Source of the DNA: Patescibacteria group bacterium
GTDB taxonomy: Bacteria > Patescibacteriota > Minisyncoccia > Phycocordibacterales > Zambryskibacteraceae
Assembly: GCA_038058485.1 (NCBI GenBank)
Contig: JBBUBA010000022.1
Coordinates: forward strand, 1 to 43,163
DNA: 43,163 bases
Reading direction: 5' to 3'
Made by a program: the position numbers and the translations under genes. This document shows, piece by piece, positions 11,886 to 37,849 of the stretch. Under the pieces are notes generated by a model. It was not told the DNA's origin and made no database searches. It saw nothing but the letters and a program-made list of their open reading frames with translations. The first letter of the stretch is position 1. Each line of letters starts with the position of its first letter.

Positions 11886-12156
11886 TAGCCCTATTTTAGC
11901 ATATTTGAGGCTAAAATACAAGTATTTGGTCTTTGTTCTCTTTTGTGTTAAGGTTGCTTTCATGGGCAATCTGGCCTGCCTGCTATCGAGCAGGAATTAA
12001 TAATCTCCTGTTTCGTTACCCCTCAAGGTTCGGCAACCACTGAAGCAACCCGAGGACCGAAACAGGCTCAAAAATTTGTCATTATTTGGAATTGGAAAGA
12101 AAGTAGTAGGGGTAGAGGAAACTAAAGCAGACATTGTTGTGCCTGTTTTCTCGTTC

Positions 12157-13206
12157 ATGGGCAAGCTTGTGGAAAAGTCCCCTGCTCCGCCTAAAGTTGA
12201 TGACGTGATAGAAGGTCCTGTCCTCTCTATAGACAAGGGGGCAGTCTACATTGACCTTCCACCATTTGGCACAGGTATTATCTACGGTCGCGAGTTTATG
12301 AATGCTCGTGACATTATCAAGAAAATAAATGTTGGTGACACTGTCGCGGGCAAAGTAGTCAGTATCGGTGGAGAAGATGGCTATATTGAGATCTCTCTCA
12401 AGGAAGCACGTCAAGCTCTCATCTGGAGCGAAGCCGAAGACGCTATCCGAGAAAAGCGAATCTACGATCTGCCAGTGACCGATGCTAACAAGGGTGGACT
12501 CATCCTCAATTGGCAAGGTATTCAAGGTTTCCTCCCAGCCTCACAACTCAAACCAGAACATTATCCAAGAGTAACAGACGGCGACAAGGACAAAATCTTG
12601 GATGAACTTAGGAAACTGGTTGGAGAAAAACTTTCTGTCACTATCATCGGCGCCACACCAAAGGAAGGAAAACTCATCTTCTCTGAAAAGTCCCCGGAAA
12701 CAAAAAGCAAAGAAAACATTATTCAGAAATACACTTTGGGTGATGAACTGACTGGAGAAGTTACTGGCCTTGTAGACTTTGGTGTCTTTATCAAACTTGA
12801 GGAAGGTCTTGAGGGGCTGGTACATATCTCCGAGATTGATTGGGGCTTGGTAGAAAATCCAAAAACGATGTTTAGAATTGGAGAAAAAGTCAAAGTAAAG
12901 ATAATAGAAATCAAAGACGATAAAATCTCCCTCTCCATCAAGGCACTAAAAGAAAATCCTTGGAAGGATGCCTCAAAGAATTACAAAAAAGATGATGTGG
13001 TAGAAGGTGTCATCATCAAATACAACAAACATGGTGCTCTGGCTTCAATAGAAGAGGGTGTAGCGGGATTAGTACACGTCTCTGAATTTGGTTCTGAAGA
13101 AAAGCTTCGTGAGACTCTTGAGATGGGCAAATCCTACCCGTTCAAAATCACTCTTTTTGATCCGAAAGAGCAGAAAATGGCTCTCTCGTACGTGGAAAAG
13201 AAATAG
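12157..13206 (+). CDS. rpsA: 30S ribosomal protein S1 (four S1 domains)
   Basis: Repeated S1-domain pattern (G..V.G.V......G..V.L....G..H.SE). The frame is open from TTG at 12076, but I prefer the ATG at 12157 (MGKLVEK..PKVDDVIEG). Confidence 0.85.
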   Translation: MGKLVEKSPAPPKVDDVIEGPVLSIDKGAVYIDLPPFGTGIIYGREFMNARDIIKKINVGDTVAGKVVSIGGEDGYIEISLKEARQALIWSEAEDAIREKRIYDLPVTDANKGGLILNWQGIQGFLPASQLKPEHYPRVTDGDKDKILDELRKLVGEKLSVTIIGATPKEGKLIFSEKSPETKSKENIIQKYTLGDELTGEVTGLVDFGVFIKLEEGLEGLVHISEIDWGLVENPKTMFRIGEKVKVKIIEIKDDKISLSIKALKENPWKDASKNYKKDDVVEGVIIKYNKHGALASIEEGVAGLVHVSEFGSEEKLRETLEMGKSYPFKITLFDPKEQKMALSYVEKK

Positions 13207-13336
13207 GAACAGCTTCTAGGTTTCAGCTGCTAGCTTCTAGCTTTAATTTTTCTATCTAAATACTGGCTACGTTGAAACAATGCTATAGCGTTTCTACAAC
13301 GTATTATTGGATTTTTTAAATTTCTAAATTTTAGGC

Positions 13337-13361
13337 ACCACAGAGGATCCTCCTATGGGGT
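13337..13361. repeat. left copy of a perfect 25-nt direct repeat ACCACAGAGGATCCTCCTATGGGGT
   Basis: Identical 25-mer at 14648-14672. Confidence 0.95.
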
Positions 13362-13699
13362 TAATCGTGATTTCTTTCTAAAACTCGATGAATGGTACTC
13401 TTAGCAACTTTGGTTCCTTGTCTTTCTAGTTCTAGATGTATCGCTTCAATACATCTCTTATTTTTTCTTCTTATATCTAGAATCTTTTCTTCCAGCTCTC
13501 GTGGTATTTTTCCTGGAACGCTCTTCGGAACAGGAGATTGAGTGAGTATCGGCACATCTCCAACCTTCTTAGCTTTCCTAACCCACTTCATGATAGCTGT
13601 GTGGTGACACCCGGTGTACCTAGCGATCTTTCTGGCACTCCAGCCCTCGAAATACAGTCTGGCAACATCCCTCCTAATCCGAGGCATGTTCTTATTCAT
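13361..13699 (-). pseudogene. IS481-type transposase, N-terminal HTH part only (no DDE domain)
   Basis: MNKNMPRIRRDVARLYFEGWSARKIARYTG..ILTQSPVPKS..EEKILDIRR..STIHRVLERNHD resembles IS481-family N-termini. The frame stops exactly at the left repeat. Confidence 0.6.
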
Positions 13700-13766
13700 G
13701 ATGTATGACATTACTCGATAATAAATCACCAAAGCGGTGCCAAGGTGGTGGAGGATTACGTACCAC

Positions 13767-13795
13767 TTGACAGAACAAACTAAGTATGATAGTAT
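13767..13795 (+). promoter_or_regulatory. promoter TTGACA-17-TAGTAT (cassette C1)
   Basis: Hexamers with a 17-nt spacer. AGGAGA SD upstream of the ATG at 13875. Confidence 0.5.
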
Positions 13796-13874
13796 GGAAA
13801 GGTAGTTCTTTGGCAGTATCCCGGCCGAGAGGCCACTCACAAAACCCGAGAGGGTTAACCAGGAGACTGGCTCC

Positions 13875-14279
13875 ATGTTCGAAATTCCGGATGACATCGC
13901 GGCACAACTCCGACTGGGTTCGAAGAACCTTGATCGGATGAGTGGAGACATCAACGATACCGTCAGAATAGTCTTCGGTCTCATCAACATCTTCACTCTC
14001 GATGATGTTGGGATTATCATCAAGACCCAGGATTTAATCTGGACGATACGTGGTAACAAGGGCGAACGATCGATCGAGTTGCTTGAAGTGTCAACGAACG
14101 CGGCAATTCTTTGGAATCAGAGCCCGTGGACAAACAGAGACGTGGGAAGTCGATTGGTCCAGTCTACTCATGAATCTCTGGACCACTTTGTTTCTCAAGT
14201 CTTGAGAGAGTGTCCCATTGTAGTTTCCGGTACACGACACTACAAGGCTCTTATCAGGGCCGCCAAGAAGCAGTTCTGA
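13875..14279 (+). CDS. hypothetical soluble protein, 134 aa
   Basis: ATG with SD. Plus-strand polarity is supported by the promoter and the strong downstream terminator. No family recognised. Confidence 0.55.
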   Translation: MFEIPDDIAAQLRLGSKNLDRMSGDINDTVRIVFGLINIFTLDDVGIIIKTQDLIWTIRGNKGERSIELLEVSTNAAILWNQSPWTNRDVGSRLVQSTHESLDHFVSQVLRECPIVVSGTRHYKALIRAAKKQF

Positions 14280-14287
14280 ATACACCT

Positions 14288-14338
14288 CCGCCCGACGGAG
14301 CCGCCCGGCTCACACGTCGGGCGGTTTCTTTTTTTTCT
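14288..14338 (+). terminator. intrinsic terminator
   Basis: CCGCCCGACG ... CGTCGGGCGG 10-bp stem followed by TTTCTTTTTTTT. Confidence 0.75.
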
Positions 14339-14377
14339 TATTCTCAAATTCTTAAGAACATTGGAATAAAAACCTGA

Positions 14378-14406
14378 TTGACTCGGGAGTTTTTGTTTTG
14401 TAGTGT
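14378..14406 (+). promoter_or_regulatory. promoter TTGACT-17-TAGTGT (cassette C2)
   Basis: Hexamers with a 17-nt spacer. The GTG at 14403 proposed by the ORF track lies inside the -10 box. Confidence 0.5.
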
Positions 14407-14438
14407 CGAGAGAGGCTCCCTCCTACACGGAGAAAGCA

Positions 14439-14615
14439 ATGAGTGAGAATGATGAGCTTCCAACACACCTCTGCCACTACTGTGGCAAAACCTACACAGG
14501 GCCACTCGGCCAGCATGGTTGCGCTGAACAACTCGCGGAAGTAGCGAGGATGAAAGCTCGGAGAGATCGGCGCTATGGCAAGCTAGGTGCCATCAAGACC
14601 GCGAACGAAAAGTAA
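14439..14615 (+). CDS. 58-aa Cys/His-knuckle mini-protein (HLCHYCGK...HGC) with a basic tail
   Basis: ATG at 14439 lies 5 nt after GGAGA. Terminator hairpin overlaps the stop. Confidence 0.5.
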   Translation: MSENDELPTHLCHYCGKTYTGPLGQHGCAEQLAEVARMKARRDRRYGKLGAIKTANEK

Positions 14616-14628
14616 TCGCGGTCTTTTT
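14596..14628 (+). terminator. intrinsic terminator
   Basis: AGACCGCGA / TCGCGGTCT 9-bp stem followed by TTTTT. Confidence 0.65.
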
Positions 14629-14647
14629 CTTTATGATAATTCAGTTT

Positions 14648-14672
14648 ACCACAGAGGATCCTCCTATGGGGT
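14648..14672. repeat. right copy of the perfect 25-nt direct repeat
   Basis: Identical to 13337-13361. Ends 4 nt from the pth stop codon. Confidence 0.95.
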
Positions 14673-14675
14673 AAA

Positions 14676-15164
14676 TTACCCGTTGAATTGGGTTTGGGCT
14701 GATTGGAGACTGTCGGAGATTATAACTTCCACTGCAGTCACGACATTTTTGAAAACTTTTTTGAGGGTTTCCTTTTCGGTTGGAGTAAATTTGCCCAGAA
14801 TGTGTTTTTCTATATCACTCTTCTTCCCTATTCCAATTCTTATCCTAATAAATTCTTTAGTTTTGACGGCACGAATAACAGACTCAAGACCTTTGTGCCC
14901 GCCAGAGCCTCTGTTCCAAGATATTTTCATCGTTCCCACCGGTAAATCTAAGTCATCATGAATGACAATCAATTTCTCGGCTGCCTTCTTACTTTTGATT
15001 ACTTTAGCCACAGCTACTCCCGATTTATTCATAAATGTGTCCTGATGAATAAACTTGGCCTTCACCTCTTTCTTTTCTAGAGCCTCAACTGCCATCTTTC
15101 CCGTGTTGTGACGAGTTAGAACATACTCTTCGCCCGGATTGCCTAGTCCAATTATTGTGTACAT
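14676..15164 (-). CDS. pth: peptidyl-tRNA hydrolase
   Basis: MYTIIGLGNPGEEYVLTRHNTG.. N-terminus. Start taken at this Met rather than 15182. Confidence 0.9.
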   Translation of the reverse strand: MYTIIGLGNPGEEYVLTRHNTGKMAVEALEKKEVKAKFIHQDTFMNKSGVAVAKVIKSKKAAEKLIVIHDDLDLPVGTMKISWNRGSGGHKGLESVIRAVKTKEFIRIRIGIGKKSDIEKHILGKFTPTEKETLKKVFKNVVTAVEVIISDSLQSAQTQFNG

Positions 15165-15194: not shown

Positions 15195-15779
15195 ATGGAA
15201 CCGAATACCACCCCTGCTCCTGTTCCAGAGAAAGAAACAAGTTTTTGGAAGGAATTAGTGAAGCTGGCAGTGATTGCCGTGGTTATCATTATTCCCTTTC
15301 GTCTTTATATCGCACAGCCATTCGTGGTAGATGGAGCCTCAATGGATCCAACCTTCAGAAACGGGCAGTATCTCGTGGTGGATGAGTTCTCCTACCATTT
15401 TAAGACCCCCATTAGAGGATCTGTGCTTATTTTTAGATACCCTAAGGATCCTAAAAAATATTTCATCAAGAGAGTGATTGGACTTCCAAATGAGCAGGTA
15501 GCAATCAACAATGGGGAGGTCACAATTATAAATACAGATAATCCAAAAGGATTCCTTCTCAATGAACCATACGTAAAACTAACAAAGGACGAAACTGAAA
15601 CTTACATTCTCAAAAGTAAGGAGTACTTTGTAATGGGAGACAACCGCGCTGGCAGTGCTGACTCGAGACTTTGGGGCCCGGTACCAGAGAAAAATATAAT
15701 TGGGCGCCCAATTGCTCGCCTTTGGCCTCTTGGTCTTTGGCCAGGAGTAGAACCAGAATACACAAATGCGTCCCATTAG
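15195..15779 (+). CDS. lepB: signal peptidase I
   Basis: N-terminal TM, catalytic-Ser box DGASMDPTF and GDNRAGSADSR box. Confidence 0.9.
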   Translation: MEPNTTPAPVPEKETSFWKELVKLAVIAVVIIIPFRLYIAQPFVVDGASMDPTFRNGQYLVVDEFSYHFKTPIRGSVLIFRYPKDPKKYFIKRVIGLPNEQVAINNGEVTIINTDNPKGFLLNEPYVKLTKDETETYILKSKEYFVMGDNRAGSADSRLWGPVPEKNIIGRPIARLWPLGLWPGVEPEYTNASH

Positions 15780-15847
15780 AAGCTCACTAGTACAAGCTAT
15801 GAAATTAAATCATTATCAGAAAGTAATAAGCACTAGCTTCTAACGGG
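15772..15847. repeat. 76-nt element X bounded by 13-nt inverted repeats CCCATTAGAAGCT / AGCTTCTAACGGG
   Basis: The left arm overlaps the lepB stop. The right arm abuts the ATG at 15848. 15762-15852 matches the reverse complement of 34942-35032 at 86 of 91 positions by hand alignment. Confidence 0.85.
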
Positions 15848-17002
15848 ATGCGCAAAACTGAATTTGATAAGCCTCTTTGGATAGCAGCTCACTTCGGCTT
15901 TGTGCCGATGGAGGCTCCATCAATCTCGGAAGAGGATGTTCGAATGACTAAAGACTGCATGCCTGCGCATGCAGGCGATGAGAAGATTGATAAGGCTTCT
16001 GGTTCACCCCGCCTTGGCGGGGCAAGCCTCATCTGTAACGCTCCAGAGAAGGCTGCCTTTATTCGTCATTGCGTTGAGAAAAAACTGTCAGAATCCCTCT
16101 TCCCTCTTGCTCTATCTTGGCGCAGAGGCCGAGATTATGCACTCGAGCTGGTGGGCTACCCCATAGGAGTGGCCGAGGCCAAACTCATTCGTGCTTCCCT
16201 TTCAATCCTAAACGAAGAAGGTTACAAGGATCTGAAGGTTGAGATAAATTCCATCGGAGACAAAGACTCCATCATGGCCTACGAACGAGAGCTCCACACA
16301 CACCTGCGTAAGGCTGGACATGACTTATCGACCGAACTGAAGAAAATTTTTAAAGAAGATATTTTTGCTTTGGCTAAAGCTCAAGGTGAGGAAGCGGAGA
16401 ATTTGAAGAAAAATATGCCTTCTTCTGTGGCTAGTCTCTCGGCACCGAGCAGAGTGCAGTTTAAAGAAGTCATAGATTATTTAGACGCCTTAAAAATAGA
16501 GTATCGCTTTGCCCCAGAACTCGTTGGACACAAAAATTTATGTTCGGAGACTTTATTCGCAGTGAGAGATGCTGAAAACCGCCTCCTTGCTGGAGGCTAC
16601 AGATATTCAAGACTTTCAAAACGCTTTGGTTTCAAAAAAGAACTTTCCTTAATTGGAGCTACGATTTATGGCGAGAAGAAAATTAAGGATGTCAAAGTCT
16701 ACAAGGAAGCTCCTAGAGCTAGGTTCTATCTGGTGCACCTAGGCCGTGAGGCTAGGATGAAGGCCCTGTCCCTCATAGAGCTCCTGCGCTCATGTCACAT
16801 ACCAATCTATCACTATCTGGGCAGAGATAAGCTTGCAGACCAAATGCAGAGCCCAGAAGCCATACGTACACCGTATCACTTGATTGTCGGACAAAAGGAA
16901 GCTCTCGACAATACTGTCACCATAAGAAACGTTGGCAGTCGTGCTCAAGACACAATTGAAATGGCTCGCCTTCCCGACTACCTCAAGCATTTGCCGATTT
17001 GA
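15848..17002 (+). CDS. HisRS/HisZ-like class II aaRS paralogue (divergent)
   Basis: FGFVPMEAPSISEE resembles motif 1. The C-terminal anticodon-binding-like region reads LIVGQKEALDNTVTIRN. The canonical RYERPQ-type segment is not evident. Confidence 0.55.
   Translation: MRKTEFDKPLWIAAHFGFVPMEAPSISEEDVRMTKDCMPAHAGDEKIDKASGSPRLGGASLICNAPEKAAFIRHCVEKKLSESLFPLALSWRRGRDYALELVGYPIGVAEAKLIRASLSILNEEGYKDLKVEINSIGDKDSIMAYERELHTHLRKAGHDLSTELKKIFKEDIFALAKAQGEEAENLKKNMPSSVASLSAPSRVQFKEVIDYLDALKIEYRFAPELVGHKNLCSETLFAVRDAENRLLAGGYRYSRLSKRFGFKKELSLIGATIYGEKKIKDVKVYKEAPRARFYLVHLGREARMKALSLIELLRSCHIPIYHYLGRDKLADQMQSPEAIRTPYHLIVGQKEALDNTVTIRNVGSRAQDTIEMARLPDYLKHLPI
16974..16998. repeat. left copy of a perfect 25-nt direct repeat CCGACTACCTCAAGCATTTGCCGAT
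   Basis: Encodes the last codons (..DYLKHLPI) of the HisRS-like gene. Identical 25-mer at 17430-17454. Confidence 0.95.
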
Positions 17003-17027
17003 CAAACTCAGTGTAGTATAGTAATAT
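16999..17027 (+). promoter_or_regulatory. promoter TTGACA-17-TAATAT (cassette D1)
   Basis: The -35 box starts directly after the repeat and overlaps the TGA stop. The ATG at 17026 from the ORF track lies inside the -10 box. Confidence 0.55.
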
Positions 17028-17064
17028 GCAAGCAGGCTCGAACTTCACTCAACCGGAGGTTTAC

Positions 17065-17319
17065 ATGGTGTTCATTTTCAAGTCTCTTGGCGTCGCGGGG
17101 TTCATCGCTTTGAGCTTCACCGTGTATGCCCTGGTCGGAGGAATTCTGACTCTCTTCCATGTCGCTCAACACGGCTCCCTGTCACAAGTAGTGATAGTGG
17201 TTGCACTGGATACCATGCTGATTCTGATCATTGTCGGCTTCGTCAAGTTCCTCGTATACGCATGGAAGAATACCGATCGCATCGCATCTGGCAAAATCGC
17301 AACTCCCTTCAGCTCCTGA
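17065..17319 (+). CDS. 84-aa two-TM mini-protein
   Basis: ATG lies 5 nt after GGAGG (AACCGGAGGT context). Two hydrophobic helices. GC3-rich codons. Confidence 0.6.
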   Translation: MVFIFKSLGVAGFIALSFTVYALVGGILTLFHVAQHGSLSQVVIVVALDTMLILIIVGFVKFLVYAWKNTDRIASGKIATPFSS

Positions 17320-17351
17320 CAAAATTGGGAGCTTTTTCATACAAATTTCAC

Positions 17352-17373
17352 AACATACGATATATCGTATGTT
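17352..17373. repeat. perfect 22-nt palindrome AACATACGATATATCGTATGTT
   Basis: Seen directly. Lies between the D1 stop and the right 25-nt repeat, with no T-tract after it. Confidence 0.9.
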
Positions 17374-17429
17374 AATAACTACACGTCATAATTTTGCTAC
17401 CGCACAACATTGACGTATGAGGAATTTCA

Positions 17430-17454
17430 CCGACTACCTCAAGCATTTGCCGAT
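17430..17454. repeat. right copy of the 25-nt direct repeat
   Basis: Followed by A TAA, so ..DYLKHLPI-stop can be read here too. Confidence 0.95.
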
Positions 17455-17514
17455 ATAAATAGCGTATTTACTGAACTCTGCAACATCATATCAGACACTA
17501 ACCGGAGGTAGCAA

Positions 17515-17739
17515 ATGAAAGCTCTTAAGCTCCTCTTCATTATCGGAGGCATGGTGGAGGTTGGAATAATCAGCCTTTCCACCGCCTTCGCTGTGAAAAT
17601 CATCGAGGTAATCACCACTCTCGACAGCTTCACGCTGGTAAGCGTGACCATCATCTGGATACTGATGGTCATGGTCTCCATCGTGTTCGGCTACGTGCTC
17701 TACATCGGTTGGAAAGTGTACAAGAAGATGCCTCGCTGA
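17515..17739 (+). CDS. 74-aa two-TM mini-protein (same architecture as 17065-17319)
   Basis: ATG preceded by AACCGGAGGT, as for D1. Two hydrophobic helices and a basic C-terminus. Confidence 0.6.
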   Translation: MKALKLLFIIGGMVEVGIISLSTAFAVKIIEVITTLDSFTLVSVTIIWILMVMVSIVFGYVLYIGWKVYKKMPR

Positions 17740-17764
17740 ATGCCCGCGAAATGATGCCCCAACT

Positions 17765-17800
17765 AGCCGGGCGAATCTAGTACAGATTCGCCCGGCTTTC
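17765..17800 (+). terminator. GC-rich hairpin, probable terminator
   Basis: AGCCGGGCGAATCT / AGATTCGCCCGGCT 14-bp stem followed by TTCACG (weak T-tract). Confidence 0.55.
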
Positions 17801-17845
17801 ACGTTATTGCAGGCTTAAATATATTGTGTTAGAGTTTCCCGACAA

Positions 17846-28185: not shown

Positions 28186-30338
28186 AAAATCTCCTCTTTT
28201 TCGTCTATTTTACTCTCCTCTATTACTATTGTTGATCCCTCGATTGTAGAAACATTACCTTTAGGAGAGAAGATGACCCAAGCTACTGAGAAAATGAGAA
28301 CGACAATGAGGGGGAGGATGAGACAATATTCATTCAAAATGTAGGAAGCGGCAATGGCTCCAAGAAGACCAAGGACAAGAGTGCTCCATCCGACAATGAA
28401 TCTCTTAAGGACATTTTCAGATGTATCAGTATAAAGGACATTCTTAAGAATGGCCCCAAGAAGATAAAGGACAGACAGAATTAAAGCAAATTCGTAAAGA
28501 CACTGAAGTTTATCCCTTAAACTATCTGGCGTAGTCAGGATAGCTGAAGCCAGATTTCTCAAATTTTGTCCTTTATTGATTGGCTCCGCTATTGCCAAAG
28601 TTGAAGTGGAGGTTATGGGCACTAGGGCCGTTAACACCTCTGTAGAAGTGCTGGTCTGGTACCCAACAATCGGTAGTCCGACTCCTCCGCCACTCTGGAG
28701 TAGAGCTCGGTAAACATCAATTTCGTGTTGTTGTTCGGGCGTTATTGCAACATTGTTTCCACAATAGATTTCGTTGACCTTCTTTAGAGTCAGAATGTAA
28801 GCATAGTGAGTGGGAGCTGTCTCGCCCCAAGGAGTAAGTATCTCGTCTTTGTACTTATCCTGGAAGTTCCCAACTGCATCATAGGTAGCTTGATCAAAGA
28901 CACCATTGATAGTCACTGCATCATAGCCCATATAAACCTTAAGGAAGGACTGAAGCTTCATTACCTCTATAGGATCGTTATTGAAATCGATCCTCATGTA
29001 ATCATTTACTAAAGGACAAGCAAATGGAATGGATGGAGGGGGAGAAGAGTGTCTACGACCACTTCCACCACCGCCTCCGCCACCGCTTGGAGGTGTCACG
29101 GGTGACGGTGGAGGAGTGATAGCTAGATCAATCACCACTGTATCACTCGCATTAACTGTACCATTGGTACAGGTGATAGTGATGGTGACAGGAGTTGATG
29201 TAGATGGATAAAAGGGATTACCTGATGCAATTGGAGAACTCGTTCCAACGAGACCTATACCGGAGACTACAGAAGGGCTCATCTGACATGCAGTCGAATT
29301 TGTTGAGGTCCAGGAAAGGATATAGACATCACCAGTCATGAGCGTAATTGGCCCATCGGAACCATTGGCCTTAATATCTACTATCGGTGTGGTAGTCGTC
29401 CCAATGTTTGCAAGATTTATTGTAACAGAATCACTTGCAGTTGTAACTCCATCCGTACAAGAAACCGTAATCGTTATTGGGGTGGTAGTTGAAGGATAAA
29501 ACGGGTTACTAGAGTCTATAGGAGCCGAACTTCCTATAAGAGACATTCCTGACACTATCGCTGGATTCATCTGACATGAAGTGGAATTTAATGATACCCA
29601 AGAAAGAGTATATGTTCCGCCAGGGATCAGTGTAATGGGACCATCAGAGCCGTTGGCTTTGACATCTATTGAGGGAGTGCTAGTCGATCCAACTAATTGC
29701 ACTACCACTGTATCACTCGCATTAACTGTGCCATTAGTACAGGTGATAGTGATGGTGACAGGAGTTGATGTAGATGGATAAAAGGGATTACTCGAATCTA
29801 TCACTGAACTCACGCCATTAAGCGTCACACCAGAAACAGTAGGACTCACCTGTTGGCAGGCGGTGGAATTGGTAGAATTCCAAGTATAGGTGTATGTGCT
29901 TCCAGAACTCAAAGTAACAGGACCATCGGAACCATTAACCTTCACATCGATTGTTGGTGGAGTAATAGGAGCTGGCAAAATAACTATCACGCTATCGGAC
30001 AAACTGGCTCCTCCTGCATCAATACAAGTAACGCTAAAGGTCGTGCTTCCACCAATTGCAGGATAAGAAGCATCTCCAGGAAGAACGGTGAAGGATGCAG
30101 ATGGTGACAACCCAGAAGAAGTCGGCGCAGTTAGCTGGCAGGCAATTGCATCAACTGTAGTCAAACTTACTGTAAAAGGTTGAGTTGAAGTTGAGAGGGT
30201 CAATGAATCCTGATTATCTGCTTTTATATCAACAGACAGAGCTGCTAAAGCAGAGCTTGGAGCAAAACAAAAAAACATAACCACAGCCGTGGAGATAATG
30301 AATAATTTTCTGTAAATTTGGCTTTTGATTAAGCTCAT
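28182..30338 (-). CDS. large secreted surface protein with about 5 Ig-like repeats, a poly-Gly/Pro linker, a peptidoglycan-binding-like domain and C-terminal TM helices
   Basis: Signal peptide MSLIKS..SSALA. Repeated unit ..VDIKANGSDGPITL..Y.LSW.S.NSTACQM.P..SG......NPFYPST..PVTITI.CT.G...ASD.V. Also LQSFLKVYMGYDAVTINGVFDQATYDAV. Confidence 0.8.
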   Translation of the reverse strand: MSLIKSQIYRKLFIISTAVVMFFCFAPSSALAALSVDIKADNQDSLTLSTSTQPFTVSLTTVDAIACQLTAPTSSGLSPSASFTVLPGDASYPAIGGSTTFSVTCIDAGGASLSDSVIVILPAPITPPTIDVKVNGSDGPVTLSSGSTYTYTWNSTNSTACQQVSPTVSGVTLNGVSSVIDSSNPFYPSTSTPVTITITCTNGTVNASDTVVVQLVGSTSTPSIDVKANGSDGPITLIPGGTYTLSWVSLNSTSCQMNPAIVSGMSLIGSSAPIDSSNPFYPSTTTPITITVSCTDGVTTASDSVTINLANIGTTTTPIVDIKANGSDGPITLMTGDVYILSWTSTNSTACQMSPSVVSGIGLVGTSSPIASGNPFYPSTSTPVTITITCTNGTVNASDTVVIDLAITPPPSPVTPPSGGGGGGGSGRRHSSPPPSIPFACPLVNDYMRIDFNNDPIEVMKLQSFLKVYMGYDAVTINGVFDQATYDAVGNFQDKYKDEILTPWGETAPTHYAYILTLKKVNEIYCGNNVAITPEQQHEIDVYRALLQSGGGVGLPIVGYQTSTSTEVLTALVPITSTSTLAIAEPINKGQNLRNLASAILTTPDSLRDKLQCLYEFALILSVLYLLGAILKNVLYTDTSENVLKRFIVGWSTLVLGLLGAIAASYILNEYCLILPLIVVLIFSVAWVIFSPKGNVSTIEGSTIVIEESKIDEKEEIF

Positions 30339-34565: not shown

Positions 34566-34946
34566 TTATCGGGAGATTATAGCATTCCAAAATCGCTTCC
34601 ACCAAGGCAAATCTTCTGTTGTAGTTGTTGACTCAAGCTGTGGGCGGTCGACTATCACAGCGACCCGCTCGCCTTCACGAGCTACATTAAATTTTGATTT
34701 TATCTCTTCTTCAACCCCAGATTCGGTACCGAGCTTACTCGTTTCCCTAAGCAGAATTTGTTCCCGTTCGGCCAGTGCTGAAGCCCTAAGAGCCAAAGCT
34801 TCGGCCTCGTGAGATGTCTCCCTTTCCTTGAGTACCAAAAAGTAGGTACCCCTAGCTAGTGCCCCAGTAATAATAAGGAGAAGAACCAAGGCCGGTAGAG
34901 AGTAGAGCCTCTTTTTTAATCTTTGTCTATGCTCAAGTTCACGCAT
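34566..34946 (-). CDS. FtsB/DivIC-like septum formation initiator
   Basis: Single TM followed by a coiled coil, then ..EEEIKSKFNVAREGERVAVIV.. typical of the family C-terminus. Confidence 0.55.
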   Translation of the reverse strand: MRELEHRQRLKKRLYSLPALVLLLIITGALARGTYFLVLKERETSHEAEALALRASALAEREQILLRETSKLGTESGVEEEIKSKFNVAREGERVAVIVDRPQLESTTTTEDLPWWKRFWNAIISR

Positions 34947-35022
34947 CCCGTTAGAAGCTAGCGCTTATTACTTTCTTATAATGATTTAATTTCACGGCTT
35001 GTACAAGTGAGCTTCTAATGGG
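34947..35022. repeat. 76-nt inverted-repeat element Y (inverted copy of X)
   Basis: CCCGTTAGAAGCT ... AGCTTCTAATGGG. Abuts the ATG of the FtsB-like gene (minus strand). Confidence 0.85.
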
Positions 35023-35046
35023 ACGCATTTGTTTTTCTATGCTAAC

Positions 35047-35163
35047 ATGACTTTTATGCTATTCGAAAAACGCCACAAACAAAAAATAAAGACTGTCTGG
35101 ATTATCCTTTGTGTCCTCATCATCATCTCGATGGTGCTTCTCTACACCCCATTCTGGCAGTAG
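35047..35163 (+). CDS. 38-aa single-TM mini-ORF MTFMLFEKRHKQKIKTVWIILCVLIIISMVLLYTPFWQ
   Basis: ATG and stop are seen. Its last 83 nt are repeated at 35877-35959, but that copy has no start codon. Confidence 0.35.
   Translation: MTFMLFEKRHKQKIKTVWIILCVLIIISMVLLYTPFWQ
35081..35163. repeat. 83-nt direct repeat, copy 1
   Basis: 77 of 83 positions identical to 35877-35959 by hand alignment. Confidence 0.9.
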
Positions 35164-35876
35164 CTTACTAATCTTTGTCCAACACCGAGTGTTGACCAAT
35201 TTCTTCTATAACTTCCTTTGCAGTACTGCTTGAAACAAATCTTCCATACTGATCTTTACTTTTAAATTGCTCGAGAATAATCTCTGGCTTCAGCAAACTT
35301 CCCCATCTATTTTTATTCATGTAGTCCTCAAAGCTCGACCAAGAATAATCGCTCCACTTTTCAGGGTTTTTGTGAACATAAGCTGATAAATATAGAAGTT
35401 GCTTATCATCCACAATGTGGACAGCTTGATATGGCCCTTGAAAAACGTGCCCTGATTTTTGATATTTTGTATTGTAATATTTTGTATAACTATTCAGAAC
35501 TCTTTGCATGTATCTGGCAATTCCCTTGTCATCAATTTCTTTAACAACTAGATGGAAGTGATTCGGCATCAAACAATAGGCCGTTAGTTCAACGAATCGC
35601 TTTTTGATAATTTTTACTAAATCTTCAGCATCTATGGCAGACACTCGGTGTTGACCAAAAGCTTTCGCCATTCGCCCAACATGCAAAAAGTTTATAGGCG
35701 ACTGAAAAGCAATTATCAGAAATAGAAATCTATAAAAATCGCTTCGATCATGAAAAATATTTTGTTTATTAACTCCTCTGTTATAAAGATGGTATATCTC
35801 GCCTGGAGCAATTCTTATTTGTCTCATTGCTTTATTATAAGGTCAACACTCGGTGTTGACCAGTTGGGGTTATTGT
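35164..35876 (-). mobile_element. IS200/IS605-like (RAYT-type) element between 83-nt direct repeats
   Basis: A single HUH/Y1 transposase gene. Related hairpins (GGTCAACAC-TCG-GTGTTGACC and variants) lie at 35841-35861, 35640-35653 and 35180-35194. Confidence 0.65.
35168..35827 (-). CDS. Y1 (HUH) transposase, IS200-like / REP-associated tyrosine transposase family
   Basis: ..YHLYNRG..AYCLMPNHFHLVVKE..GHVFQGPYQAVHI..LLYLSAYVHKNP. The HUH motif is HFH. Confidence 0.8.
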   Translation of the reverse strand: MRQIRIAPGEIYHLYNRGVNKQNIFHDRSDFYRFLFLIIAFQSPINFLHVGRMAKAFGQHRVSAIDAEDLVKIIKKRFVELTAYCLMPNHFHLVVKEIDDKGIARYMQRVLNSYTKYYNTKYQKSGHVFQGPYQAVHIVDDKQLLYLSAYVHKNPEKWSDYSWSSFEDYMNKNRWGSLLKPEIILEQFKSKDQYGRFVSSSTAKEVIEEIGQHSVLDKD

Positions 35877-35959
35877 AAAAAATAAAGACTGCGTGGATTG
35901 TCCTTTGTGTCCTCATCATCATCTCGATGGTGCTCCTCTACACCCCCTTCTGGAAGTAG
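35877..35959. repeat. 83-nt direct repeat, copy 2
   Basis: See copy 1. Ends 1 nt before the lepA stop codon. Confidence 0.9.
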
Positions 35960-37753
35960 TTATTTATCGGACCGAATCATCTTTAAAAATACGTCTTGGG
36001 GGATGTTGACTGTCCCGCATGCTTTCATCTTTTTCTTGCCTTTTTTCTGCTTTTCACGAAGCTTCATTTTGCGAGTGATGTCTCCCCCATACATATGTTG
36101 AGTCACATCCTTCTTCATCCCTGAAAGACTCCTGGAAGAGATAATTCTACCAAGGGCTTTACCTTGAATCTTTAAGCTAAACATTTGGCGAGGCAGAATT
36201 TTAGAGAGTTTTTCCACAGCTGATTCTGCCTCACCTTCCACTTGTCTTCTTGAAACCACTTTAGCAAAGGCAGCGACCGGTTCGTCTGCTACTAGAATAT
36301 CGAGTCTTGTTACATCCGCATCTCTCTCCCCCACGATGTCGTAGGAAATAGATGCAAAGCCAGAAGTGACACTTTTCAACTTATCAAAGAAACCTCGCAT
36401 TAGCTCTCGAAGTGGCATCTGAAGCGAGAGAGATGTTCTGTCGGCAAGGCTCTGTGTGTCCCCCACTTCCGCCTCATGCTCATATAAAAGTTTTAATATC
36501 TCACTCAAAAATGAAGGTGGAGTTATTATTTTTGCCTCTACCCACGGTTCGCGAACGCTCTCTACCAAATGCTCTTCTGGGAAAAAAGATGGAGTGTATA
36601 TAGTTTCAATTTTTCCGCTTCTCAAGGTTACGTTGTATGTGATGCTCGGCAAAGTGATGATAAGAGGTAAATCAAATTCGCGTCTTAATCTTTCAGAAAT
36701 AATTTCAAGATGGAGCATTCCTAAAAATCCACATCTAAAACCTCTGCCGAGTACTCCCGAAGACTCTTCTTCAAACGAAAAGGATGAGTCAGAAAGCTTC
36801 AAACGTAAAAGGGCTTGGCGAAGTTGAGTAAAGTCATCCTGACTCTCTGGATAAATAGAAGCCCAAACTACAGGACGAGCCTTTTGATACCCAGGCAGAG
36901 GTTCGTGAGTATCAGAGATAGCTGAAACAGTATCACCAACGGAAACAATTCCCGGTTCTTTGATGCCCGTTACGATGTAACCAGTCTCTCCTGCATTCAA
37001 ACTTTCAGCCGGAGTCTCCACGGGGGCAAAGTAGCCAACTTCAAGTGCTTGGAACTTTTTATTTGCTACTTTAAAAATAAGCTGGTCACCCTTTTTGACA
37101 CTTCCAGCCACAGCTCTGACGAAGACTATCACTCCTCTATGTTCAGAATATTTGAAATCAAAAACCAAAGATCTAAAGAGAGCCCCGTCAGTCGCGAATT
37201 TCCCTCCTTGACCGTGAGCGGGTGACGGGACTTTCTTGATAATCTCTTCCAGTAACTCTTTAACTCCTTCACCAGTTTTTCCTGATACCATCATGATATC
37301 TTCTTCGTGCACATTAAGTAGGGCTACAATTTCTTTTTTAACCACTGCAATCTGAGCTAGTGGAGAGTCTATTTTAGATATGACAGGGATAATGGTGAGT
37401 CCTGCATCCTTGGCCATGCCTAGAGTTGTGAGAGTCTGAGCCTGTACGCCTTGGGTGGCATCCACCAAAAGAATTGACCCTTCTACGGCTTTAAGAGCTC
37501 TAGAAACTTCGTAAGAAAAATCTATGTGCCCTGGAGTATCAATTAAATTTAAGGTGTAATCTCCATATTTCATCCTGACGGGTTGCATCTTGATAGTAAT
37601 GCCCCTCTCTCGTTCAAGTTCCATTGAGTCGAGAACTTGTTCTTTCATTTTTCTTTTCTCTATCGTCCCAGTTAACTCAAGCATCCTATCTGCCAGTGTA
37701 GACTTACCATGATCAATATGCGCAATGATAGAGAAGTTTCTTATTTTATCCAT
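35960..37753 (-). CDS. lepA: translation elongation factor 4 (LepA)
   Basis: IRNFSIIAHIDHGKSTLADR, DTPGHIDF and the LepA C-terminal domain. 597 aa. Confidence 0.95.
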   Translation of the reverse strand: MDKIRNFSIIAHIDHGKSTLADRMLELTGTIEKRKMKEQVLDSMELERERGITIKMQPVRMKYGDYTLNLIDTPGHIDFSYEVSRALKAVEGSILLVDATQGVQAQTLTTLGMAKDAGLTIIPVISKIDSPLAQIAVVKKEIVALLNVHEEDIMMVSGKTGEGVKELLEEIIKKVPSPAHGQGGKFATDGALFRSLVFDFKYSEHRGVIVFVRAVAGSVKKGDQLIFKVANKKFQALEVGYFAPVETPAESLNAGETGYIVTGIKEPGIVSVGDTVSAISDTHEPLPGYQKARPVVWASIYPESQDDFTQLRQALLRLKLSDSSFSFEEESSGVLGRGFRCGFLGMLHLEIISERLRREFDLPLIITLPSITYNVTLRSGKIETIYTPSFFPEEHLVESVREPWVEAKIITPPSFLSEILKLLYEHEAEVGDTQSLADRTSLSLQMPLRELMRGFFDKLKSVTSGFASISYDIVGERDADVTRLDILVADEPVAAFAKVVSRRQVEGEAESAVEKLSKILPRQMFSLKIQGKALGRIISSRSLSGMKKDVTQHMYGGDITRKMKLREKQKKGKKKMKACGTVNIPQDVFLKMIRSDK

Positions 37754-37830
37754 CCCGTTAGAAGCTCATGCTTATTAATTGCCTAGTAATATAGTTTGTT
37801 TTTTTCATGTCAGAGGTTGCTTCTAACGGG
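37754..37830. repeat. 77-nt inverted-repeat element Z (same arms as X and Y, different core)
   Basis: CCCGTTAGAAGC ... GCTTCTAACGGG. Abuts the lepA ATG. Shares TAATAAGCAnnAGCTTCTAACGGG-ATG with X and Y. Confidence 0.8.
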
Positions 37831-37849
37831 ATCCATGAGACCTTGAACG

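Follow-up and report, generated by a model that had tools for sequence, protein, structure and literature searches.

In a contig of a Patescibacteria group bacterium from Hainich groundwater (well H41; the window, meaning the whole stretch of 43,163 nt that was analysed), the convergent genes rpsA and pth are separated by a block of DNA that carries a perfect 25-nt direct repeat, ACCACAGAGGATCCTCCTATGGGGT, on either side, and the question raised by this locus is what placed the same sequence at both edges. The initial annotation had treated the block as a unit bounded by a duplication, which was not supported, as the block is composite DNA that includes a module native to the locus in the closest relative. 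We consider it likely that the 25-mer is a repetitive extragenic palindrome (REP) going with a REP-associated tyrosine transposase (RAYT, a domesticated Y1 HUH enzyme similar to those of IS200/IS605), and that the pair represents two REP copies at rearrangement junctions in a variable rpsA-pth spacer.

The perfect repeat was found exactly where it had been described (positions in Table 1). The window contains exactly two copies, both on the plus strand and both intergenic, and no further copy was detected in it when up to three mismatches were allowed (0 expected by chance). With one mismatch the repeat stretches to 29 nt, the added bases being TAAT on the left and AAAT on the right, and the sequences abutting the pair are TTTTAGGC up to 13336 and AAATTACCC from 14673. 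A 10-nt palindrome, GAGGATCCTC, had been pointed out within the repeat and is present, but the relevant symmetry is that of the entire 25-mer, an imperfect palindrome of two 11-nt arms around a 3-nt loop, in which 9 of the 11 arm pairs are complementary. Around copy 2, TTT and AAA extend the stem to 14 pairs, and this copy folds with its flanks at -8.9 kcal/mol (z -3.5). The 25-mer itself folds better on the plus strand (-5.8 kcal/mol) than on the minus strand (-2.5 kcal/mol), a strand asymmetry of the kind that TnpA_REP and IS200/IS605 enzymes use. The flank on its 3' side, after ...GGGGT, is A/T-rich (AAAT, AGAT, TAAT or AAAC, written as on the window's plus strand).

A scan of GTDB (one genome per species) with ACCNCANAGGANNNTCCTNTGNGGT, in which the arms were fixed and the mismatched and loop positions were left free, gave matches at 76 loci, of which about 48 carry the title of a Patescibacteria lineage, including Vogel-, Zambryski-, Nomura- and Saccharibacteria, Paceibacterota and others. 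The family members are nearly always perfect palindromes, and both free positions were complementary in 70 of 82 family matches, compared with the 1 in 16 expected. The family is also biased towards extragenic DNA, with 35% of the matches in long open frames, whereas random positions drawn from these loci fall there in 84% of cases. In related genomes the copies mostly stand singly; several genomes have more than one, for example JACPIA01 (9 copies) and JBBTUX01, a metagenome-assembled genome (MAG) from H41 (7 copies), and elsewhere REPs were seen around ordinary genes in consecutive intergenic spacers, examples being rpsB (L053) and an antitoxin-like ORF (L074). The initial annotation had proposed counting the 25-mer genome-wide as a possible REP-like element, which proved to be the right test. 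The 25-mer appears to be a dispersed, intergenic REP-like palindrome with a cognate RAYT, and this speaks against taking its two copies as the boundaries of an insert. In the Vogelbacteria MAG JACPIA01 (L008 864, L023 590 and L027 436), a conserved stretch of about 40 nt with a hairpin at its end, aaataaccyttatttatcaacaacgaggctwagcctcg, comes after the palindrome, and the repeated unit there exceeds the REP.

The association with a transposase gene was found repeatedly. Pairs of palindromes 680-700 nt apart in L024, L033 and L038 enclose a Y1_Tnp protein of 210-226 aa (IS200-like), and a RAYT adjoins the palindrome in 11 GTDB loci. Pfam Y1_Tnp was above its gathering score for three members of this protein family, which is very large, with at least 7,869 proteins at E <= 1e-10 when up to 8,000 candidates were considered, and the sole NCBIfam match of the RAYT proteins was NF047646 (REP-associated tyrosine transposase). 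The exact 25-mer of the window occurs in direct orientation on both sides of a RAYT of 203/210 aa in L087 and in L096-L099. L087, which was found by a metagenome scan with the window arm combination, is contig 24234 of the window's own sample, with a coverage of 4 (the window's contigs have 5), and its RAYT carries the HUH motif NHFHIL and the tyrosine motif YSYIHLNPAKL. The locus recurs in an NCBI MAG and in two Logan runs, one of which also has the window's pth contig. The tetranucleotide correlation between L096, a 16-kb RAYT contig, and the window is 0.93 and equals that of one window half against the other, so the RAYT contig is very probably part of the window's genome.

In L087 and L096 the RAYT belongs to a type IV pilus operon, with pilin genes on one side and the prepilin peptidase gene on the other. 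Other groundwater genomes have a 70%-identical RAYT at the same syntenic position, and the REPs that flank it agree in arm type, down to the 'hybrid' arms ACCCCATAGGA...TCCTCTGTGGT. RAYTs have been described as single-copy, vertically inherited and syntenic between species (PMC5581495), and this shared locus follows the same vertical, single-locus pattern. Other arm types likewise flank a RAYT on both sides (L024, L033, L038 and L100). The REPs around the RAYT are direct in L087/L096, L100 and L024, and have inverted loops in L033 and L038.

Three further observations concern RAYTs and REPs. In the clade to which this RAYT belongs, the end of the gene is always overlapped in a fixed frame by the downstream REP (L038 5176-5202, L074 583-609, L024 6005-6029 and L096 6184-6208), and the C-terminus that it encodes is …TTEDGPLW or …TTQDNPVW, or T-P-stop with the arm ACCCCATAGG. 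A REP variant, ACCCCATAGGA-TCC-TCCTCTGTGGT, was found at L084 3683-3707 (ERZ1292625 contig 5371, from the window's sample), within the open frame of a uvrC-like gene (I-Y-P-I-G-S-S-S-V-V-D); its arms are the same and its loop is flipped, TCC vs the GGA expected in the reverse complement of the window form, which suggests a template switch within the hairpin. Finally, the window itself contains a second, distant RAYT of 219 aa on the minus strand (35168-35827), 36% identical to the other clade, which has palindromes of its own, GGTCAACACYSRGTGTTGACC, at 35180-35197 and 35841-35862 and a partial copy at 35641. Within 35047-35959, this whole unit is bracketed by 83-nt direct repeats that are 93% identical (35081-35163 and 35877-35959) and correspond to the 3' end of a 38-aa membrane ORF (35047-35163).

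The DNA between the two 25-mer copies was compared with the same spacer in relatives. In the closest relative (L088/L089), which comes from the same aquifer, the 58-aa module lies directly after rpsA (L088 7185-7460) with 71% nucleotide and 69% amino acid identity; homology to L088 stops at 14647/14648, the right REP edge, after which L088 has a 431-aa ORF and then pth. Relative to L088, the extra DNA of the window extends from 13207 to about 14365 and is not bounded by the REPs, and no edge of the block coincides with an indel boundary that the left REP would define. The closest relatives (pth identity 83-88%) carry different ORFs between pth and rpsA, and neither the palindrome nor the 25-mer was found in their pth-rpsA spacer, so that this spacer is a variable region; a true empty site was not found among them either. 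The single copy of the 25-mer for which the initial annotation had suggested looking in relatives was likewise not found, as these have zero copies in the region and share part of the supposed insert. The 130 nt behind rpsA (13207-13336) had no match in relatives. By this comparison, the block is a composite of an IS481 remnant, an orphan ORF and the 58-aa module that is native to the locus in the closest relative, with each REP copy sitting at a breakpoint, and the pair does not delimit one acquired unit.

The left REP copy stands beside a truncated insertion sequence (IS). The transposase of this IS481-family element had been read as cut down to its helix-turn-helix (HTH) part with a stop at the repeat end, which was confirmed: the 112-aa ORF matches positions 2-105 of the 284 in the NCBIfam IS481 transposase profile, and the last base of its TAA is 13361. 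The remnant (13366-13772) is 76% identical at the nucleotide level to L095 377-781, which runs on into the rve domain, and the homologous protein P0122 continues beyond ...ERNH into VLRKRSPWKRF.... Homology breaks at 13366. The 4-nt stretch between this break and the left REP, TAAT, is similar to the flanks of other copies (AAAT and AGAT). No remainder of the element was found on the other side of REP copy 1, in 13207-13336, which is non-coding and has a minus strand full of stop codons. The true end of the IS (13772) and the right repeat are separated by 875 nt, and what adjoins the left repeat is an internal break of the element. An IS481 target-site duplication was consequently rejected, since the repeats fail to abut both terminal inverted repeats of the IS, and the earlier view that IS481 does not explain a 25-nt repeat holds.

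The two plus-strand ORFs (134 and 58 aa) exist, and promoter-like and terminator sites were found where the initial annotation had placed them. The site at 13767-13795 is predicted to be a hybrid outward promoter created by the IS, because its -35 element (TTGACA) is the outermost part of the IS481 terminal repeat. Neither ORF had a Pfam or NCBIfam match, and a search for homologs of the 134-aa ORF among 1.84 billion representatives returned itself and two weak matches, none of them informative. No integrase or recombinase was detected in 13362-14647 by Pfam or NCBIfam, no RAYT remnant was detected in the block by tblastn (E <= 1e-5), an Rfam search of 13000-15000 gave a chance-level match only, and the searches turned up no other copy of the block.

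Table 1. Features of the rpsA-pth region, in window coordinates.
Feature	Position	Strand	Remarks
rpsA (S1 domains)	12076-13206	+	left anchor gene; syntenic in relatives
Spacer after rpsA	13207-13336	+	130 nt, A/T-rich, non-coding; weak terminator-like hairpin 13229-13241
REP copy 1	13337-13361	+	ACCACAGAGGA-TCC-TCCTATGGGGT; with 3' flank TAAT (13362-13365) a 29-nt unit
IS481 transposase ORF	13361-13699	-	112 aa, HTH part only; DDE/rve part missing
IS481-family remnant	13366-13772	-	left terminal repeat (outer end TGTCAAG at 13772) and 5' third of transposase
Promoter-like site	13767-13795	+	TTGACA-17-TAGTAT, TG-extended; faces 134-aa ORF
134-aa orphan ORF	13875-14279	+	strong intrinsic terminator behind, 14297-14328
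58-aa gene module	14366-14647	+	promoter (TTGACT...), ORF 14439-14615 (CxxC...HGC), terminator hairpin
REP copy 2	14648-14672	+	orientation as copy 1; 3 nt from pth stop codon
pth (peptidyl-tRNA hydrolase)	14676-15164	-	right anchor gene, convergent with rpsA

The arrangement could have arisen as follows. The population would carry the RAYT in its type IV pilus operon with the exact 25-mer on both sides as the master REP, and a few more REP copies would be scattered in the genome, two of them in the spacer of the convergent rpsA and pth. One of these would have come to lie close to the pth stop codon, behind the terminator of the native 58-aa gene, and the other at the truncation point of the decayed IS481-family element. 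The two copies would be identical because the same master REP was their source, and not because of one target-duplicating event. By analogy with known enzymes of this type, the RAYT may make or move copies by acting on the single-stranded hairpin. The position of both copies at breakpoints suggests REP-associated deletion, and REPs could mark deletion or rearrangement joints that result either from REP-by-REP recombination or from RAYT cleavage and rejoining at the hairpin feet.

This account draws on the resemblance to the REP and bacterial interspersed mosaic elements (BIMEs) that go with TnpA_REP (RAYT) in Proteobacteria such as E. coli (yafM), Pseudomonas and Stenotrophomonas (PMC2817692, PMC3333891, PMC3479197). 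As in those systems, a hairpin repeat of 20-40 nt occurs in several copies, mostly extragenic and frequently at the 3' ends of genes; that repeat also stands on both sides of a single Y1 HUH gene with the HUH and Y-x-H-x-N-P-x-[RK] motifs; and from one lineage to another the REP arms vary in step with the RAYT, which is inherited vertically at a fixed locus. Non-autonomous repeats that are identical within a genome and thought to be copied by the RAYT are also known as REPINs (REP doublets forming hairpins) in Pseudomonas fluorescens (PMC3116915, PMC3337134). A REPIN, however, consists of two inverted REPs with a short spacer that form one long hairpin, whereas the copies described here are in direct orientation with 1286 nt between them. 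An IS lying directly against a REP is also seen with insertion sequences that have REPs as their targets (such as IS1397 and ISPpu9/10; PMC1525189, PMC8450116). Such elements integrate within the REP, so that each IS end is left with a half-REP or a short duplication, whereas at this locus it is the truncated inner end of IS481 that touches the REP, and its true terminal repeat is 410 nt off in unrelated DNA.

Several points weigh against the assignment to a REP-RAYT system or set this case apart from the Proteobacterial ones. Proteobacterial REPs have a conserved GT(A/G)G or CGTC tetranucleotide as a head at the hairpin foot (PMC3733652, PMC2817692), and no such head was found in or adjoining the 25-mer, which is an 11+3+11 palindrome whose ends are ACC...GGT. 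In this lineage, the RAYT is flanked by direct REPs, not by inverted ones as in Proteobacteria (PMC2817692). The host belongs to the Patescibacteria, and the RAYT proteins score 33-43 bits with NF047646, below the curated cut-off of 80. The link that places the RAYT contig and the window in the same genome is made of sample, coverage and composition. An empty site was not found in a near-identical strain, so the order of events is one that we infer. The number of copies is a further point. In about 68 kb of contigs from the population, five copies of the window REP type were seen, namely the window pair, the pair beside the RAYT and the L084 variant. In a host genome that we take to be about 1 Mb, the 25-mer may have a low copy number, tens or fewer, whereas Proteobacterial REPs number in the hundreds, and the classical count of >100 copies is probably not reached. 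If the number is indeed low, two copies 1.3 kb apart would be unexpected by chance, hinting at a local link between them, and such a link is possible.

A stronger version of the REP-RAYT account would make the RAYT and its REPs active agents of local remodelling in the ultra-small genomes of Patescibacteria, with REP deposition or RAYT cleavage-rejoining deleting or exchanging the adjoining DNA, and with the REP-X-REP segment (13337-14672) possibly excisable by the RAYT; this we regard as doubtful. If REPs do mark deletion joints, they would have a bearing on how tiny genomes lose DNA, for example decayed insertion sequences.

Alternatively, the 1286-bp segment could have entered whole at a single pre-existing REP, either by short-homology recombination between that REP and a circular DNA carrying the REP, or as an element that duplicates the whole palindrome as its target; both routes would result in a REP at each edge. 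The copies are perfect, direct and exactly of palindrome size, the block is somewhat higher in G+C than its flanks, and the variability of the spacer among relatives as well as the few REP copies seen, which make their proximity suggestive, would be in keeping with such an event. We nevertheless consider it unlikely, as the 58-aa module, which forms the right end of the block, is in synteny with the closest relative, no recombinase is present, the truncated IS481 transposase gene is the only one from a mobile element and the end of that element lies within the block, and no empty site was seen in six contigs with this pth (four places shown). Perfect direct repeats of about 25 nt on both sides of a block are also left by elements of the IS1202 group, with target duplications of 27-28 bp, and by integrases, as attL/attR pairs. 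Unlike in those cases, no intact transposase or integrase is found inside, the repeat belongs to a dispersed family that very probably has members elsewhere in the genome, and the block holds native DNA. An integrative element with attL/attR was rejected for the absence of a recombinase inside and because relatives without the 25-mer at this site share part of the block. A dif/Xer site or an integron attC was also rejected, on account of the multiple copies, the RAYT that they flank, the 3-nt loop and the absence of a recombinase nearby.

It is also conceivable, though quite unlikely, that the two REPs with their cargo form a non-autonomous transposon similar to IS200/IS605, like a palindrome-associated transposable element (PATE), with both hairpins on one strand and moved in trans by the RAYT. 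Direct copies of the same hairpin flank the lineage's RAYT in the way that left and right ends flank IS200/IS605 elements, and the hairpin is strand-asymmetric. IS200/IS605 elements and PATEs share with this system the imperfect one-strand hairpins at both ends of the transposase gene, the Y1 HUH enzyme and the absence of a target duplication. Their left and right ends, however, are unlike each other and each has a specific cleavage tetranucleotide, whereas the hairpins here are identical and no conserved cleavage tetranucleotide has been demonstrated. In addition, the RAYT unit is itself syntenic between species and vertically inherited, not mobile, and the cargo includes native DNA and a unique 134-aa ORF and has no second copy.

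The palindrome could instead be primarily a protein-binding operator or a bidirectional terminator, its link to the transposase gene being incidental. Several copies in other genomes are located 8-12 nt upstream of TGnTATAAT boxes, and the right copy in the window lies between convergent genes where a terminator would be expected. Against this, many lineages show a Y1 transposase gene flanked by the REP, which overlaps the gene's stop codon; between genomes the sequence changes but the arm complementarity stays; and no T-run follows the window copies. Co-option of REPs for roles of this kind is known in any case (PMC3333891). The operator reading, suggested by the palindromes upstream of -10 boxes, was thus dropped for a REP given the Y1 transposase linkage, and we regard it as very unlikely.

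The perfection of the repeats, the 25-nt length of both repeat pairs in the window and the low coverage (about 5x) would be in keeping with an assembly artefact, a loop closed through a shared k-mer, but this is extremely improbable. Four assemblies (L001, L003, L004 and L005), of which two are ENA replicates (R1 and R2) and two are Logan contigs that come from other runs and span both copies, agree at 100% identity over the rpsA-pth region with the repeat pair, and the same 25-mer was independently assembled around the RAYT in four further records. Logan is built from k=31, at which a 25-nt repeat is unable to form a loop. A fifth contig stops inside the block.

With the pair read as two REP copies, a false lead is removed, as neither a new transposition mechanism with long duplications nor an assembly problem is needed. 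REP-RAYT systems have been studied mainly in Proteobacteria, and our literature searches found no description of REP or RAYT in Patescibacteria. The present data document such a system in these streamlined genomes, with a related 25-nt palindrome consensus common to many lineages and an atypical, direct orientation of the REPs around the RAYT.

The initial annotation had found it notable that a second repeat pair of the window (16974-16998 and 17430-17454) is also perfect and exactly 25 nt long, yet unrelated in sequence. Both pairs are indeed perfect and unrelated, but the shared length is a coincidence, since it is the size of the palindrome (11+3+11) in one case and the last 8 codons of a hisS-like gene in the other. 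A common cause was rejected, the other pair being a non-palindromic duplication of a gene 3' end. Its copy 2 (17430-17454) is followed by ATAA and would encode the same C-terminus, resembling the gene end of a relative, CCGATATAG. Compared with L088, the region 16999-17815 has 817 extra nt with two small ORFs of two transmembrane segments each (84/97 aa and 74 aa), and the 16974/17430 region looks like a small gene cassette that was inserted with duplication of the gene 3' end.

Two other kinds of repeat were seen in the window. An element of about 100 nt occurs at 15762-15861 and, on the opposite strand, at 34933-35032 and 37744-37838, with 79-91% identity; CCCRTTAGAAGC...GCTTCTAACGGG are its terminal inverted repeats. 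The copies directly precede three different genes (the hisS-like gene, a 126-aa ORF and lepA), and the element ends in ...CTAACGGGATG, which supplies their start codon; it could be an element similar to miniature inverted-repeat transposable elements or a shared leader or promoter. A similar motif, AGCTTCTAG, is found just after rpsA (13213-13245). At 29134-29964, coding sequence contains 108-nt direct repeats (90% identical, with a distance of 570 nt) and three 51-nt copies at intervals of 282-288 nt, and is probably a gene with internal domain repeats.

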